26,316 nt of DNA, from positions 1-26,316 of IMG/VR virus record IMGVR_UViG_3300030376_005959, one strand, 5' to 3'. The notes beneath the pieces were generated by a model. That model was not told the DNA's origin. It worked only from the letters and a program-made list of their open reading frames with translations, and searched no databases. Position 1 is the stretch's first letter. Every line of letters begins with the position of its first letter. Positions 10,521-25,909 of the stretch are shown piece after piece. Source of the DNA: a virus. Its lineage: Duplodnaviria; Caudoviricetes. The position numbers and the translations under genes were made by a program.

Positions 10521-12435
10521 TTTTGTCCCCAAAGGGGATGATAAGTTAATTAAAGCCTTTCAAGGGCTTTCAGCAGGGCAAAAAAGGTTTAATAAGGATG
10601 TTCAGAAAGGCTCTAAACAGTTAGGTATTTTTGACACACAAAGCAAGAGAAATGCAAAAAGTTTATCTTCAATGGGTAATGCTTTTTCTGTCGTTCGTTC
10701 TAAATTGTTATTATTTAACTTTGCTGTAGGGACTTTAGGTGTAAAGGCTTTAGCAGCTTTTGCAAAAGAGGCTGCGAAAGTTGAGTCTATGGGCAGGGCT
10801 TTTAACACTCTGTCAGGTGGAGTATCAAATGCAAATATTGCTATTGGAAAACTGCAAGTAGCAACAAACAATACAATGTCTGAATTTGATTTGTTTCAAC
10901 AGGCAAACAATGCTATGATACTTGGTGTTAGTAAGAACTCTGATGAGATGGCTGAAATGTTTGACATAGCACAAAGGCTTGGTCGTGCATTGGGAAGAGA
11001 TACTGCATCTTCTGTTGAATCACTTATTACAGGTATTGGTCGTCAATCTCGCCTCATGCTTGATAATATTGGTATTATAGTCAAAGCAGATGAAGCATAT
11101 GAAAAATATGCTGAAAAATTAGGCACTACTGCTGATAAACTGTCTGATGCAGATAAGAAAACAGCCTTCTTGGAAGCTACGATGGAATCTGCAAGAACAA
11201 AAGTAGCAAGTTTAGGGGCAGAAGTTTTTTCCTCTCAAGACTCATTTGATGCATTTTCATCTACTGTAAGTGACTTGAGGGTTCTTGTGGGTGAAAAACT
11301 TAAAGGAGCTTTCACAGGAGCTATGAACGCTTTTGTAGATTTTGTAAATGTTAATAAGGATGCAGATGTTGAATCTGCTTTGGCTTCAAGAAGTGTAGAT
11401 GTTTTAAACCTTTCCATAAAACGATTAAAAAATGAACTTGAACCATTAGAAAAGCTACTTGAGGGTAATTTTGGTCCTGAAACATTTGTTCCTACGGGGA
11501 CTGAAGAACGAGTTAGGGTTATAAAAGAGCAAATTGGAGATTTAGAAGTAGAACTGTCCTCTGTAGAGGCTTCTTTGTTTACAATGACTCATGCTTTTAT
11601 AGAAGCAAGCAATGTAATGGGAACTTTTGCTAAAAATGAAGCAGCTTTAGAAACTTTAGGTTTAATAAGGAGTGAGGTTGATTTTTTGTCTAAATCATCT
11701 CTTGTGGAATTTAAAGAGAATTACAGCTCTGTTTTTGATACTATAAATAATTCTACAGGAGAATTTTACGCAAACCTTGCTATGCTGTCAGCAGATAATT
11801 TATCAAGAGAGCAAATTTCTATAAATATGCAAGAAGCAAGAATGATAGAAAGTCTTAAAAATATTGACGAATCAAGTATGAGTTTTGAAGAAAAAAAGAA
11901 GCAAAGAAAAATCATTATAGATGAGTTTGATAAAAAAAGAGATGCTTCAAAAATTAAAGATTTTGCTTCTAACTTAAAACAAACTGAAGGCATTATGAAG
12001 GCTTTTGGGGCGACTGAAAAAGAAATTGCCATAGGCAAGGCTACTATAGATGGGATTGTAGCTATACAGAAAGCATGGACTTCTGCTCCATTTCCTGCAA
12101 ATTTACCTGCTGTAGCCATAACTACTGCAAATACAGTTGCCAATGTTCAGGCTATAAAGGCTCAACAGTATGAAACAGGTGGGCTTGTTGGTGGTCGCAG
12201 GCACTCACAGGGTGGCACTATGATTGAAGCAGAGCAAGGTGAATTTGTAATGTCAAGAAATGCTGTAAACGCTGTAGGTATAGAAGCAATGAATCGTATT
12301 AATCAAGGTGGTGGTGCAGGTAGCGTAGTAATAAATGTATCAGGAAATGTTATGAGTCAAGATTATGTAGAAGGTGAGTTGGCTGACCAATTAAAAACAG
12401 CAATCAGGCGTGGTGCTGATATAGGAGTATCTTAA
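10492..12435 (+). CDS. Tape measure protein
   Basis: 647 aa, Ala-rich and helical, with GIGRQSRLMLDNIGI and C-terminal YETGGLVGG…EAEQGEFV motifs; follows the chaperones. Confidence 0.9.
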   Translation: MAQDKTITINFVPKGDDKLIKAFQGLSAGQKRFNKDVQKGSKQLGIFDTQSKRNAKSLSSMGNAFSVVRSKLLLFNFAVGTLGVKALAAFAKEAAKVESMGRAFNTLSGGVSNANIAIGKLQVATNNTMSEFDLFQQANNAMILGVSKNSDEMAEMFDIAQRLGRALGRDTASSVESLITGIGRQSRLMLDNIGIIVKADEAYEKYAEKLGTTADKLSDADKKTAFLEATMESARTKVASLGAEVFSSQDSFDAFSSTVSDLRVLVGEKLKGAFTGAMNAFVDFVNVNKDADVESALASRSVDVLNLSIKRLKNELEPLEKLLEGNFGPETFVPTGTEERVRVIKEQIGDLEVELSSVEASLFTMTHAFIEASNVMGTFAKNEAALETLGLIRSEVDFLSKSSLVEFKENYSSVFDTINNSTGEFYANLAMLSADNLSREQISINMQEARMIESLKNIDESSMSFEEKKKQRKIIIDEFDKKRDASKIKDFASNLKQTEGIMKAFGATEKEIAIGKATIDGIVAIQKAWTSAPFPANLPAVAITTANTVANVQAIKAQQYETGGLVGGRRHSQGGTMIEAEQGEFVMSRNAVNAVGIEAMNRINQGGGAGSVVINVSGNVMSQDYVEGELADQLKTAIRRGADIGVS

Positions 12436-15302
12436 TGTCGTTTGAGAATGATATAAAAGGTCAGAATACACAGCTTTACCCTGTTGTACAGATTAATAAT
12501 AATTGGTACTCAACCAACAATGTAACTGTTGGAGATAATTATTGTAAACCTATTCTTATGAATATTCCATCTATAAAGGAGTCTATAGACATAGAGTCAA
12601 GGAAGTTTAAGATTTCTAATGTATCTCTTGATTTTAATAACTTTCCTTTTGAGGGTTCAAGATTCTCTGACCAATTAGCTGAAACATCTCTAATTAACGC
12701 TGAAGCAGTTGTATACTTTAAAAGTCATACTGAACTAAAAGAAGTGTACAAAGGAATAGTAAGAACTTTAACTCACGATGATGAGAAAGTAATAGTTAAT
12801 CTTGAAGATTTAACAGAGCAAAAAGCACACGCAGACCTGCCATTGTCTGAATATCCTGATGGTACTAAAGGATATTTGGAAGATACAGAAAGCGTGCCTG
12901 ATAAATACAAGAATAAACCTATTCCTATGGTTTATGGTCATGTAGATAGAAGTCCTGTTGTTATTAGTGAAAATTTTAGAAAATATCAAGCAGATACAAA
13001 GCAAGTTGATTTTATAGAAGCGTTGTCAGGATATACTAATAAATCAGATGTAAATGTTTATCTTGATTCCTTACAAGTAGATATAGATGGTGAGGTTCAT
13101 CACATTGTAAGAGGTAATCAATATGAATATGGTGAAACATCAATAAATTTATCAGGTGGGGTATTGAGTGGTATTGTTGTGGGTAGTGAAAATACTGCTG
13201 ATAGTTTTGAAGAAGTATCCTTGCTTTGTAGAAAGATAGCAAAACCAAAATTTTCAATAAGTAACCCTAAATATAACCCTGATGATGTAAATGAAGATTT
13301 TTTATCAGAAGAATATAGCATTGATAATATTAATGCAATTACAGATGGCAGTTTAGAAGAAAATAATATAGGGTTATCAGGACAAAGACCATCAGAGAGT
13401 CTTAATATTGAAGAAGGTAGGGTTTCATCAAACAATGAAAGGCTACTACTATCCTTAAATATGGATGTTACACCACAACATGATACTAACTATGGCAATG
13501 ATATAATTGGATTTAAAATCAATGGCTACAACATACCAAACTATCTTGGTGATACAGTTTTAAAAGTAAACCACTTTAATGATAAATTTGGTGGAAGTGG
13601 TGATATAACATCTGTTAGTTCATCTTATAGTGTTTCATATAATAGAATATGGGACACAAACATACCACACTACTCTGAAATAAATAGTATATTTGGATTT
13701 TTAAGCAACACTACAGATAGCGATATGCCATCAAGTTATGATGGTAGTACAGCAGATATTAAGCTAAACTTTTATGAAGAAAGCAATCTTGTTGGAGGTG
13801 GTTTAGAAATGCCTTTAGTTTTATTTTCAGGAGGCTTAAACAACACTTTTAACATACAATTCAGAGTTGTAGGTGATTTAGCCTATCCACAGGGATATTC
13901 CTATTATTATCCATATTTAGAACTTACAGGTAAAATAAATGAAATTGGTTTATTAGTAGAAAATAAATCTTTAAAGTTATTTAACAATGATTTTTATGCA
14001 AATGTTGAAGGTAGGTCAGATGATAATGGGTTAATTACTAATCCTATTGCAATCATAAGGCATTTAGTAGAACAAGAGCTTGGGTTTGATGCTATTAACG
14101 AGATTGATTATACTGTAGCACTAAATAATCATTCAGATTGGAAGTTTGGATTTACTGTAAGCAAGAAAATAAATTCAAAGAAATTAATTGAGGATATAGC
14201 AAAGTCTACCAAGTGCTTTCCTAAATTTAAGAATGATGGTACTTTTGGATTCAATGTAATTAAGGATGAGTATAGCGATGAAGAAGCGACTACTATTGTA
14301 GAGTCTGATGTAATATCGTATTCGTTTAAAAAGACTAAACCTGAACAGGTTTATAATGAAGTAGATGTGCAATACAAAAAAGATTATGTACAGGATTCAT
14401 ACTCAAAGAGAACTACACTTATAAAAATAGAAGGTGATTATTATGGTGGGGACAAGTCTTATTTAGAGTTTGAGTCTGACTATATTAGAGATGAGGCTAC
14501 TGCTGATAAACTTGCATCATTTTTAGCACAAAACTATAAGAATGACCACCTGATGTTTAATATAAAACTTCCTCTTCAATACATCAATTTGCAGGTAGGA
14601 GATTTAGTTAAATTTGATACCTTATTTAATGATATGAAGGCTTATGGTATTGACTATACAGTATCTTCAGAAGTAAATGGTCAGGAGCGATACCCATTCT
14701 TTATGGTTACATCAACACAAAAGAATTTAGATTCATTGTCTATTGAGTGTATGCAGTTGCACAACCTTACAGAAGATGAAGCAGATGATGTTATAATAGG
14801 TGATGATGGAGAACAGGCTGTTATACCTGCTTACTATTTTTCACTTACACAAGATTTTAACAACTTACAATTAGTATTTGAGAAAGATGATAATGGTACT
14901 CTTTTATTTAACTTCACAGACTTATCTGAAATATTTACAGCAAACAATTACATACATCTTTCAAACGATGGTGCAACAAAGTATTTATTTAAGATAGAAT
15001 CTATTGTAGATAATGTGCTTGTATTAGACCAAATACCTGCAGAAGGCTTTGCTAATGATTTTGAAAGTTTAATTACAGAGCAAGACCTCACAATAACCAA
15101 TTATGATGTAGCTACACCAACGCTTTTAGGTGATGTTAATAATGATGGCGTACTTAATGTATTAGATATTGTTTTAATAACAGGTGCAATATTAGGAACA
15201 AACGAATTAACTCCAAATCAATTTGCAAGAGCAGACCTGAATGAAGATGGGGGTCTTAATGTTCTTGATATAGTGGACTTGGTATATAGGATATTAAACT
15301 AA
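12435..15302 (+). CDS. Tail tip/hub protein with C-terminal dockerin type I domain
   Basis: 955 aa after the tape measure. KPIPMVYG and LQVGDLVKF tail-hub motifs; C-terminal duplicated Ca-binding loops GDVNNDGVLNVLDIV / ADLNEDGGLNVLDIV. Confidence 0.8.
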   Translation: MSFENDIKGQNTQLYPVVQINNNWYSTNNVTVGDNYCKPILMNIPSIKESIDIESRKFKISNVSLDFNNFPFEGSRFSDQLAETSLINAEAVVYFKSHTELKEVYKGIVRTLTHDDEKVIVNLEDLTEQKAHADLPLSEYPDGTKGYLEDTESVPDKYKNKPIPMVYGHVDRSPVVISENFRKYQADTKQVDFIEALSGYTNKSDVNVYLDSLQVDIDGEVHHIVRGNQYEYGETSINLSGGVLSGIVVGSENTADSFEEVSLLCRKIAKPKFSISNPKYNPDDVNEDFLSEEYSIDNINAITDGSLEENNIGLSGQRPSESLNIEEGRVSSNNERLLLSLNMDVTPQHDTNYGNDIIGFKINGYNIPNYLGDTVLKVNHFNDKFGGSGDITSVSSSYSVSYNRIWDTNIPHYSEINSIFGFLSNTTDSDMPSSYDGSTADIKLNFYEESNLVGGGLEMPLVLFSGGLNNTFNIQFRVVGDLAYPQGYSYYYPYLELTGKINEIGLLVENKSLKLFNNDFYANVEGRSDDNGLITNPIAIIRHLVEQELGFDAINEIDYTVALNNHSDWKFGFTVSKKINSKKLIEDIAKSTKCFPKFKNDGTFGFNVIKDEYSDEEATTIVESDVISYSFKKTKPEQVYNEVDVQYKKDYVQDSYSKRTTLIKIEGDYYGGDKSYLEFESDYIRDEATADKLASFLAQNYKNDHLMFNIKLPLQYINLQVGDLVKFDTLFNDMKAYGIDYTVSSEVNGQERYPFFMVTSTQKNLDSLSIECMQLHNLTEDEADDVIIGDDGEQAVIPAYYFSLTQDFNNLQLVFEKDDNGTLLFNFTDLSEIFTANNYIHLSNDGATKYLFKIESIVDNVLVLDQIPAEGFANDFESLITEQDLTITNYDVATPTLLGDVNNDGVLNVLDIVLITGAILGTNELTPNQFARADLNEDGGLNVLDIVDLVYRILN

Positions 15303-19900: not shown

Positions 19901-20299
19901 CTATTTTCTACGAGATACATCTAAACTTTTCCCACAGCACAGGCTTTGCTCTAAATGTATTTTAAACTTATCATAAAAATCATTTTTACCACAAGCAGAG
20001 CAATAACCTTGCCTAAAATTCCCTGTAGTATCTGTTTTATAATCTATTGCTTTTAGTTTTTGAGTTTCAACTACCTCAATCTCAAACTCATCTTCCCAAT
20101 TCTCACCATTAATAAAAGTTGAGGGATGTTTTATAAATTGCTTCTCTGTGCCTTGAGCATCAATTTGTTTTATATACATCTTTACACCCTCAATACATTC
20201 TAATTGTGTTTTTTTAGCAAGTTTGTTAAAATAATTTTTTGCCCTTTTTTTCTCTTTTTTTCTTGGGTATATTGCCCAAAAATCATCAAAATTACCCAT
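19901..20299 (-). CDS. Replication initiator-like protein (C-terminal-type domain plus Zn ribbon)
   Basis: FDDFWAIYPRKKEKKRA…HPSTFINGENWEDE is the conserved C-terminal domain of phage replisome organizers, followed by CSAC…CC. Start MGNF is preceded by AAGGGG. Confidence 0.65.
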   Translation of the reverse strand: MGNFDDFWAIYPRKKEKKRAKNYFNKLAKKTQLECIEGVKMYIKQIDAQGTEKQFIKHPSTFINGENWEDEFEIEVVETQKLKAIDYKTDTTGNFRQGYCSACGKNDFYDKFKIHLEQSLCCGKSLDVSRRK

Positions 20300-20310
20300 A
20301 ATAGCCCCTT

Positions 20311-20517
20311 CTACCATAATTTAGTAACCTTTCTTTTGTTTCTTTCGTTTTGATTCTTCCTTAAACAAGGTAAGCACCAAGATTTATTTGCCCCATATTC
20401 AGATAAAGGTACATCTTTTTTACACTTATTGCATATCATCCCATTTTCAGTAATACGCAATTTGAACTTTCGGGAGGCGATTTTATTACCACCCCCCATT
20501 TGATTGCCTTGAGCCAT
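20311..20517 (-). CDS. Small zinc-finger protein
   Basis: CNKCKKDVPLSEY…SWCLPC plus a basic tail; the start codon is uncertain. Confidence 0.6.
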   Translation of the reverse strand: MAQGNQMGGGNKIASRKFKLRITENGMICNKCKKDVPLSEYGANKSWCLPCLRKNQNERNKRKVTKLW

Positions 20518-20808: not shown

Positions 20809-21361
20809 CTTTATTCTCCTTTATTATGTTGTTTAGTTTGTTAATATATTCATCTGCCTGACTTGTGGTTAATCCTTTAAAGTCAATAGGATTCTTTGTG
20901 TTTGCCTGTAACTCTAATTGCATTATGAAATTCTTCTGCTTTTGTGTAGCAGATTTTGGTGCAGTTTCAACTTTTTTCTCAAAGGAGTCTGCCTCAATTT
21001 CAGAATATATCTGATACTCATAAGCATTTATAAGTTTTAAGGTCAGTCTATCTTTTAATCGCTTTTCAGCCATAGCGTTCATATAAGGCATTTTGCAATT
21101 AGTTGGATTGGCTTCACCATTAGACCATTCAGTTCTATCTCCAAGTGTAGCAGAACCATACAAAACTATATTAGGAGGTTGAGTACAACTTAAATCTTTA
21201 TCAGGCATATCAAATATTATACCCTCTTTATAAGCTATCTTCTCACAGGCATCGTGTGTTAAAATCCACATAGATTTATTGCCCCTTCTCATCTCCCAAA
21301 AATCATCTTTTGTAAGATTGTACTTCTCCTTGATTTCCTTCAGCCTATCTGTATTAGACAT
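20786..21361 (-). CDS. Putative single-strand annealing protein (Rad52/Sak-like superfamily)
   Basis: GEA…N…Y..AMAEKR..DR..LK…YSE.EAD core and ATQKQ…LTTSQADEYI tail; located upstream of the SSB gene. Confidence 0.55.
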   Translation of the reverse strand: MSNTDRLKEIKEKYNLTKDDFWEMRRGNKSMWILTHDACEKIAYKEGIIFDMPDKDLSCTQPPNIVLYGSATLGDRTEWSNGEANPTNCKMPYMNAMAEKRLKDRLTLKLINAYEYQIYSEIEADSFEKKVETAPKSATQKQKNFIMQLELQANTKNPIDFKGLTTSQADEYINKLNNIIKENKDGEYINR

Positions 21362-21542
21362 TGTAAATCTCCTCTGCTTTGCAACCTAATTCTTTACATA
21401 GTCTTGCTACATAAATACCACTTGGTTGCCTGTGATTGTTTACCCAATATGAAAAAGCAGTATCAGAAACTCCCACAATCCTTGCAAGGAAGCTATGCTT
21501 TATCCCTTTCTCGTTCACTATCTTTTTTAAGTTATTTTCCAT
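21354..21542 (-). CDS. XRE-family HTH transcriptional regulator (Cro-like)
   Basis: NNLKKI…LARIVGVSDTAFSYWVNNHRQPS…LCKELG classic HTH_3 pattern. Confidence 0.88.
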   Translation of the reverse strand: MENNLKKIVNEKGIKHSFLARIVGVSDTAFSYWVNNHRQPSGIYVARLCKELGCKAEEIYNV

Positions 21543-23852: not shown

Positions 23853-23914
23853 GTATTATTTTAACAAAAGTTAAAGTTTTTTAGTTTATAGAGGAGAAAA
23901 AGTTTATTTCAAAG

Positions 23915-23944
23915 TTGTCCGATTATTATTTAAAGATATATCTT
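23915..23944 (+). promoter_or_regulatory. Candidate promoter for the structured RNA
   Basis: TTGTCC-N18-TATCTT, ending 8 nt before the first paired base of the predicted RNA; same spacing as the three other promoters. Confidence 0.4.
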
Positions 23945-23952
23945 GTATAGTC

Positions 23953-24107
23953 TTTGTAGATGTTTTAGATTACTCGCCCTGTGGATTGGTATGCAACACT
24001 TGTAGCACAGGGATTTAAGACTCCATACTACAAGGGGTTTGCAACATATGGAGAAGGCATAGCCTAAAGTAACCAATGCCTGTTGCTTGAGATTTACATC
24101 TGACAAA
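23953..24107 (+). ncRNA. Putative structured non-coding RNA (four-helix junction with loop-loop pairings), family unknown
   Basis: Closing stem plus three perfect 6-7 bp stems and three loop complementarities, in non-coding DNA that is more GC-rich than its flanks. Confidence 0.6.
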
Positions 24108-24177
24108 TAGCTTACTGCTCTAATTAGTGTAAAATGATTAGGGTATCCATTTTTTCGGCTCGGCTCGGAGGAATTAA

Positions 24178-24226
24178 GGATAAGGTCAAACCTTCGTTAA
24201 GGCGAGGGGTTGGCGAAGCCTTATCC
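24178..24226 (+). other. Long GC-rich hairpin
   Basis: GGATAAGG/CCTTATCC outer stem and CCTTCG/CGAGGG inner stem with G-U pairs on the + strand. Confidence 0.6.
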
Positions 24227-24266
24227 GATTTTCAACTCTCTCAAAGGAATTAAGTAAGAACTAAAA

Positions 24267-24360
24267 GTATAAGAGTAAATTATAAAGTAAAATTATAAGT
24301 ACGATTTATAAAATATAGGTCAAAATTATAAAGCAAAATTATAATATAGATTTATAATAT
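24267..24360. repeat. AT-rich 13-bp-phased repeats (iteron/DUE-like; candidate origin)
   Basis: TTATAA at 24280, 24293, 24306 and at 24326, 24339, 24352, plus GTATAA at 24267; the triplet is duplicated with a 46-bp period. Confidence 0.7.
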
Positions 24361-24535
24361 AAAAATACATCAAAAATCTTGCCTCATTATTAGATTAATT
24401 GCATAATACAAGTAATTACAAATTATGTAAAATTACCCGAAATTAGACTAATTTTTAAATGTAATACAATTACCACCACAAAAACAACAAAAAACTTTTT
24501 TCTCCTCGTGAAAACATCTTTTTTATCTTTTTTAC

Positions 24536-25850: not shown

Positions 25851-25882
25851 CATATAACAACACCCTATAACAACAACACACG

Positions 25883-25909
25883 AAACCCACTTTAATCGGT
25901 GGGTTTTTT
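25883..25909 (+). terminator. Intrinsic terminator ending the rightward early operon
   Basis: AAACCCACT-TTAATC-GGTGGGTTT followed by a T-run. Confidence 0.85.

Follow-up and report, generated by a model that had tools for sequence, protein, structure and literature searches.

We found that the gap between the leftward and the rightward small open reading frames (ORFs) of the window, by which we mean the whole 26,316-nt stretch of DNA analyzed here, holds a real, conserved, triple-pseudoknotted RNA-like gene with a predicted transcript. The family that it represents is, judged by sequence, a variant of a catalogued orphan family, Betaproteobacteria-1 (RF02932), and it carries a guide-target pair that is newly noted here. 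That the locus also serves as an RNA-guided replication origin is, in our estimate, an evenly balanced proposition.

The window, a virus record of 26.3 kb and 76% completeness, occurs in marine metagenome runs. By protein family searches its plus strand encodes a capsid protein, an endolysin and a tape measure protein, and its minus strand the early genes for replication and recombination; relatives encode both a large and a small terminase subunit. Contigs of close strains from two runs are identical across 23863–24320, yet differ on both flanks. Beside the tape measure gene lies a 955-aa protein (12435–15302) with a C-terminal Dockerin_1 match (E 1e-8) and similar domains in relatives, and a bidirectional terminator-like hairpin (25882–25907) follows the small rightward ORFs. 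In G002, G013, G020 and other relatives the small terminase gene faces an opposite-strand large terminase gene and an unannotated gene of ~430 aa, which is an unusual layout.

The elements of the locus are as follows.
23943–23971, plus strand: predicted sigma70-type promoter (−35 at 23943–48, 17-nt spacer, −10 at 23966–71)
23977–24012, plus strand: P1 hairpin (arms 23977–83/24006–12; 9 of 9 pairs change on both sides)
23999–24034, plus strand: PK1, a 7-bp kissing helix (23999–24005/24028–34)
24021–24053, plus strand: P2 hairpin (arms 24021–27/24047–53; supported by homologues)
24041–24086, plus strand: PK2 (24041–45/24082–86; swap test 13.6 own versus 9.0 swapped)
24055–24081, plus strand: P3 hairpin (arms 24055–60/24076–81; 5 of 5 counted pairs change on both sides)
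24068–24116, plus strand: PK3 (24068–72/24112–16; swap test 13.5 versus 10.8)
24090–24101, plus strand: P4, a small hairpin between the PK3 strands, read by eye
24117–24144, plus strand: P5 hairpin (folds in the window; weak family support, 11.3 versus 10.2)
24144–24178, plus strand: repeat copy 1, the proposed guide (pentamer 24144–48, core 24164–78 ending at the P6 base)
24178–24226, plus strand: P6, a long hairpin with a conserved G run (swap test 19.9 versus 13.2)
24222–24254, plus strand: repeat copy 2, the proposed DNA target (core 24240–54; A where copy 1 has G)

A sequence-only reading had placed a structured RNA at 23953–24107 and listed eight complementarities within it, all of which are present, the closing stem with a one-base bulge. 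It had called this density of helices non-random, and the count agrees: the 155 nt hold 9 Watson–Crick helices of at least 6 bp compared to 2.3 in shuffled sequences (1 of 2000 shuffles reached 9), and the segment ranks top of 524 such segments for GC-containing helices. Its nested minimum free energy is ordinary (z −1.25). Rfam and ARAGORN gave no match in the window, in line with the earlier reading, which did not recognize the element as a tRNA, tmRNA, known riboswitch or small ribozyme.

A blastn search for phage matches with the window found none. Through the capsid protein 20 related phage loci were reached, and blastn against ten of those records recovered no copy of the RNA. A first exact pattern gave one match inside a tail gene, which was judged to be chance. 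A structure descriptor for flush kissing hairpins recovered copies with different stems and compensated kissing loops. The viral pattern left three kissing positions free and yielded 41 viral loci, of which 35 are Watson–Crick at all three free positions of PK1, where chance would give about 1 in 64. Taking as members those loci that pass the kissing and stem filters, we counted, among the matches listed, 35 of 41, 19 of 120 and 13 of 91 loci in the viral scans and 99 of 120 in the metagenome scan; a GTDB pattern scan covering 48 of 64 parts gave no member among 120 loci listed. The family therefore comprises at least 167 members including the window, with at least 120 distinct marine phage and metagenome sequences. 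The 106 full-length members form 43 clusters at 75% identity, and with a covariance model exactly one strong copy was found in each of 26 genomes.

In the alignment of 43 rows 90.6% of the cells pair compared to 62.5% after shuffling, and covariation is 0.712 versus 0.183. Because P1, P2 and PK1 served to select the members, P3 alone is independent in this pair count, with 74% of its cells paired. Swap tests covered the pairs outside the selection (PK2, PK3, P5 and P6); for PK2 27 of the 43 clusters beat 90% of the swaps and for PK3 12 of the 43. On these sequence comparisons all three pseudoknots covary across the family, which supports the earlier proposal of a conserved, multiply pseudoknotted phage RNA that reaches no Rfam cut-off. 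Homologues uphold five of the eight listed pairs, namely P1, P2, P3, the 7-bp kissing pair and GCAAC 24041–45 with GTTGC 24082–86, and speak against the other three. The closing stem (11.2 own versus 11.2 swapped), the ATTGGT/ACCAAT pair (9.6 versus 10.2) and the alternative GCAACA at 23993 (8.6 versus 8.9) are chance pairings as far as the swap test on 43 clusters indicates. The boundaries 23953–24107 were also wrong, as the gene extends over ~280 nt (about 23977–24254), and the third pseudoknot (24068–72/24112–16) and the entire 3′ half to about 24254 had been overlooked.

The candidate promoter noted just upstream held up as a prediction, since a sigma70-like site (TTG and TAnnnT-like elements 16–18 nt apart) lies a few bases before P1 in most of the 43 clusters; the supposed 5′ arm of the closing stem lies within the spacer of this promoter. 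The transcript is predicted to start at about 23977, and the wobble pairs of the stems are consistent with an RNA of plus-strand sequence. In the one RNA run compared, no reads mapped to the window or to L059, which speaks neither for nor against expression. Across the family the 5′ domain has 20 invariant positions. The P1 loop contains invariant TTGG (23986–89) and ACTT (23998–24001), and the P2 loop an invariant AAGGG run and TT. The variable L1 loop segment of many members (for example L059:1184–1200) often resembles a tRNA T-loop motif. P6 was considered as a terminator and rejected for most members, a U-tract following it in just 2 of the 43 clusters.

The 3′ half of the gene contains a repeat: a segment of 12–16 nt before the last hairpin (P6) is repeated just after P6, and both copies change together between phages. 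The segment ending at the P6 base recurs 65–86 nt downstream in 40 of the 43 clusters (one of which, L058, was aligned on another short repeat), and in 35 of the 43 the own target is better than 95% of swapped targets. Among the internal mismatches between the two copies in these 40 clusters we counted 26 G-to-A changes from copy 1 to copy 2 and no A-to-G change, while over 107 sequences the ratio is 120 to 1. No complement of the repeat beyond chance was found inside the RNA (14.15 own versus 14.67 swapped), so that an intramolecular partner was rejected. Given this lack of a complement and the one-way G/A mismatches, we infer that copy 1 pairs with the opposite strand at copy 2, which would be either the template DNA or a convergent transcript. 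The wobbles cluster 7–15 nt from the 3′ end of the guide (the end itself being set by the alignment), and many members have a guide in two parts with a small bulge. The pentamer that opens each copy can pair with the 5′ strand of P6 (13.1 versus 10.8), a geometry that would permit strand exchange as P6 forms. Mutagenesis of the diversity-generating retroelement (DGR) type was set aside, since almost all changes are G versus A and no reverse transcriptase was found, and a Shine–Dalgarno explanation because several guides have no GG and the tails co-change. The literature searches turned up no mention of the guide-target repeat. Just past copy 2 the window carries an AT-rich tandem 46-nt repeat with inverted symmetry (24264–24361), which is variable among close strains.

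Among the protein clusters of the 26 RNA-bearing genomes the most widely shared one is an initiator-related protein, present in 22. In the window two genes of the early region belong to the context of the RNA.
19901–20317, minus strand: 138-aa initiator-like protein, corresponding to the C-terminal part of phage replication initiators, with no N-terminal HTH domain
21354–21542, minus strand: small HTH regulator, which heads the divergent early operon in relatives
The 138-aa protein matches positions 179–259 of the 383 of phrog_270 (E 1e-19). Twenty of the 22 proteins are short (129–177 aa) and fall into two sequence types, A and B, and two are full-length; of 13 full-length relatives tested, 7 have HTH_36 or Phage_rep_org_N above cut-off, and one further weak match was obtained. 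In L056/G015 the RNA and the early module are nearly identical to those of the window, yet the major capsid protein is 33% identical, which suggests that the module moves between virion types.

We analyzed the association between RNA and short initiators at loci fetched by protein, not by RNA. For type B, 58 of 73 loci have an uncut short ORF and 35 have at least 3 kb upstream; 34 of these 35 (14 clusters at 70%) carry the RNA at E <0.01, and the remaining one contains a diverged but recognizable copy that includes the repeat. As just one long type-B locus had that much flank, this type lacks a real control. For type A, where the 80 loci were the best of 552 and counts were limited to loci with at least 2 kb upstream, the RNA was found beside 27 of 36 short and 0 of 17 long initiators (two or three of the ‘short’ ORFs being cut or mis-framed). 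The other 9 short type-A loci carry neither the marine RNA nor RF02932. The p-value of this association is overstated because the long loci come from other clades and the type-A set is the best 80 of 552, and the association is not phylogenetically independent. Two podovirus-type genomes (G023 and G025) combine the RNA with a full-length HTH_36 initiator, and G019 carries its own DnaB.

The structure of the short proteins was considered as well. For the type-B protein no PHROG or Pfam name was matched, Foldseek with its model gave no match at E 0.001, and an Atlas search led to unnamed viral clusters. The comparison of this model with DnaT (Z 4.1–4.3, rmsd 4.0, 65–66 aligned) and its best fold row, sigma region 2 (Z 5.9, rmsd 3.2, 69 aligned), are both within background, and the type-A structure model is of low confidence. 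Neither the podovirus initiator genes nor the short ones showed an iteron array. The type-B short initiators (L550:8838–9338 and relatives) open with a beta-hairpin plus helix of ~35 aa, predicted with high confidence, and two type-A short initiators share this start; judged from the models it is a candidate RNA-binding part. At short-initiator loci with neither RNA (L659, L672, L674, L681, L686, L692 and L706) we noticed, in the position where the RNA would be expected, promoter-led, structured-looking tracts, which have no Rfam match. Those of L659 and L672 lie about 330–860 nt upstream of the initiator, with a short imperfect repeat flanking the last hairpin. By their sequence such tracts may be further origin-RNA families.

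The claim that the family is unrecognised was borne out as far as Rfam cut-offs go, but the RNA has a distant relative in the orphan motif RF02932. This motif was reportedly catalogued in a 2017 survey of 224 motifs and described as having three pseudoknots. Weak matches of the marine model beside freshwater-type short initiators turned out to be RF02932 RNAs (85–94 bits, 8 of 8 loci). With the unfiltered marine model on 12 such loci (65 kb) the six best matches lie exactly on RF02932 RNAs, end to end (E 0.009–0.16). In the other direction the RF02932 cut-off of 49.4 bits was not reached: the window gave no match to E 10 and L059 none to E 5, and the RF02932 model matched in 0 of 5 marine genomes. 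From these reciprocal weak matches and the failed RF02932 score it follows that the window RNA is a distant relative and not a member by score. In both types P1, kissing P2, P3 and the pseudoknots follow one another in the same order (the RF02932 pairs being read by eye); both occur near short initiators and both have a guide-hairpin-target repeat. They differ in that marine members have other invariant loop bases and the extra arms P4 and P5. The Rfam model covers the first 120 nt alone and omits guide, P6 and target. The GGCGAAG-type motif of the third loop in the RF02932 consensus is found in many marine members and in their consensus, and is diverged in the window copy.

The repeat of RF02932 itself scores 15.6 own versus 10.4 swapped, and its G-to-A bias is weaker (8 versus 1). 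At freshwater RF02932 loci the initiator gene lies downstream of the RNA and in the same orientation. Searches of two samples (144 and 151) both led to one and the same bacterial genome with RF02932. This copy, in G100, shows three G-to-A changes in the repeat, and no short initiator was found within 8.4 kb of it. RF02932-type queries gave no cultured phage or plasmid match. The literature searches turned up no paper on this RNA and no functional study. The available part of the PMC5737381 main text does not name the Betaproteobacteria-1 motif, and six supplementary files of PMC10690425 gave no match in a motif search, a listing elsewhere in that source being possible.

We propose, with confidence about evenly divided, that the locus is a cis-acting replication origin that works by a ColE1-like R-loop, the RNA pairing with the template strand at copy 2 and the loop being held open for priming and helicase loading. 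Host RNA polymerase would read through P6 into copy 2, since no terminator follows P6. As P6 zips up, the template strand could then pass by strand exchange from the nascent RNA to copy 1, and G-T wobbles would be tolerated in this step. The hybrid would persist, and a 3′ end arising from RNase H or other processing would prime the host polymerase, as in ColE1. The short initiator, lacking the duplex-binding HTH, would bind the displaced strand or the RNA and load the host helicase, and the invariant knotted 5′ domain would bind either the short initiator or RNA polymerase. In this way the RNA would mark the replication start, the job that the short initiator-like protein is predicted to have lost. 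A primer had been among the functions suggested by the sequence-only reading, and it is the one that the evidence favors.

According to the available part of PMC5043065, ColE1 RNA II is a promoter-driven RNA that forms a persistent hybrid and primes Pol I, the displaced strand leading to helicase loading. The phage element would share with it a promoter-driven non-coding RNA, a proposed persistent template hybrid and a helicase on the displaced strand (PMC5043065), and differs from RNA II, as far as described there, in being about half as long and in having three pseudoknots and a variable guide of 12–16 nt. The two are likened by proposed mechanism, not by sequence or fold. Moreover, ColE1 has no initiator of its own, whereas 22 of the 26 RNA-bearing genomes encode the short or full-length initiator-related protein. 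ColE1 is also under the control of an antisense RNA I, and no Rfam family matched in the window. The ARRPOF motif, described in the accessible part of PMC5737381, is a structured RNA located in a region that is required for Rep-independent replication; relative to that description the phage RNA has no Rfam match and comes from other hosts and another type of element. Unlike retron, DGR and DRT non-coding RNAs, the phage RNA has no reverse transcriptase family among the scanned proteins, which were those of the window and selected ones of relatives. The suggestion that it might be pRNA-like or form a cage multimer found no support, because packaging in these phages relies on terminases and the covariation of the loops is within a single molecule; the relatives encode large and small subunits and not a phi29-type packaging motor, and the window has a tape measure gene. 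Intermolecular kissing would still be compatible with the sequence.

The genomic context bears on what else the guide might do. Downstream of the RNA the nearest gene is convergent in 27 of 32 clusters and often ends some tens of bases or less from copy 2; upstream the nearest gene is divergent in 32 of 33. This indicates a self-contained unit and not a leader; a leader role in most members was rejected as no same-strand gene follows. This arrangement favors an explanation that we regard as unlikely, although it is the best placed of the rivals: the guide could pair with RNA, the complement of copy 2 lying in the 3′ region of a convergent early transcript that is cut, terminated or let through, which would time the replication genes. 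G-U pairing with such a transcript explains the G/A asymmetry equally well. However, the downstream gene is co-directional in 5 of the 32 clusters, in the window and at the freshwater RF02932 loci, the RNA as it stands is antisense over its whole length to any read-through transcript, and the link to shortened initiators would be left unexplained.

Somewhat less probable is a non-priming role in which the RNA brings a protein to the DNA site, for example for a nick, the start of packaging or promoter control. IS110 bridge RNA and other guide RNAs carry an internal segment, in some cases bipartite, that is identical to a site in the nearby DNA and changes together with it. The internal segment of the phage RNA likewise matches and co-changes with a nearby DNA site, and the bipartite, bulged guide of many members and the distance of about 0.9 kb between the RNA and the start of the terminase-portal operon in three podovirus-type genomes would fit this explanation. 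In siphoviruses, however, the small terminase gene is mostly 3–6 kb away, and 69 downstream contig ends are spread evenly over 2 kb with no pile-up at copy 2, so that copy 2 was rejected as the genome end. The scanned proteins (window ORFs and selections from relatives) include no recombinase (such as the DEDD recombinase of the bridge RNA system), nuclease partner, Cas-like or TnpB-like family and no reverse transcriptase, integrase, polymerase or primase, and, in contrast to bridge RNA, the target is a single fixed, adjoining one.

A nascent RNA can also modify RNA polymerase, as HK022 put does, and we give a smaller chance again to such a role, in which pairing of guide and template would set a pause or release point. 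The RNA starts at a promoter and leads the initiator operon in freshwater phages, as would be expected, but in most marine members no same-strand gene follows, and the absence of the RNA beside full-length type-A initiators would be unexplained. The least probable explanation, that the copies are twin binding sites for a phage protein and that the RNA acts free in the cell as a decoy, scaffold or multimer, would be compatible with co-changing, operator-like sites and with the 20 invariant positions of the 5′ domain, but predicts neither the one-way G/A bias (26 versus 0) nor the flush abutment of copy 1 to P6.

An R-loop origin would explain why there is a guide, which way its wobbles run, why the RNA occurs once per genome in a self-contained unit and why the initiators are short. 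Opposing evidence comes from the full-length initiators of G023 and G025, the DnaB of G019, the nine RNA-less short type-A loci, the RF02932 copy of G100 with no nearby short initiator and the weaker G-to-A bias of RF02932. More tentatively, and with less confidence than in the origin itself, RF02932 and its marine relatives could be widespread RNA-guided phage origins, a programmable guide having taken the place of the iteron-binding domain of lambda-O-like initiators in at least two lineages.

Taken together, RF02932, which was catalogued without a function, now has a model extended from 120 to about 280 nt, and the RF02932-type family has gained a guide-target pair marked by wobbles and a link to initiators whose DNA-binding domain has been lost. 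If the replication role is wrong, the guide-target pair still requires a mechanism. If an RNA-guided origin is the correct reading, changing guide and target together would move the origin and a compact guide-RNA scaffold would be on offer, and the choice of origins by RNA–DNA pairing would be common in marine and freshwater phages and no peculiarity of ColE1.
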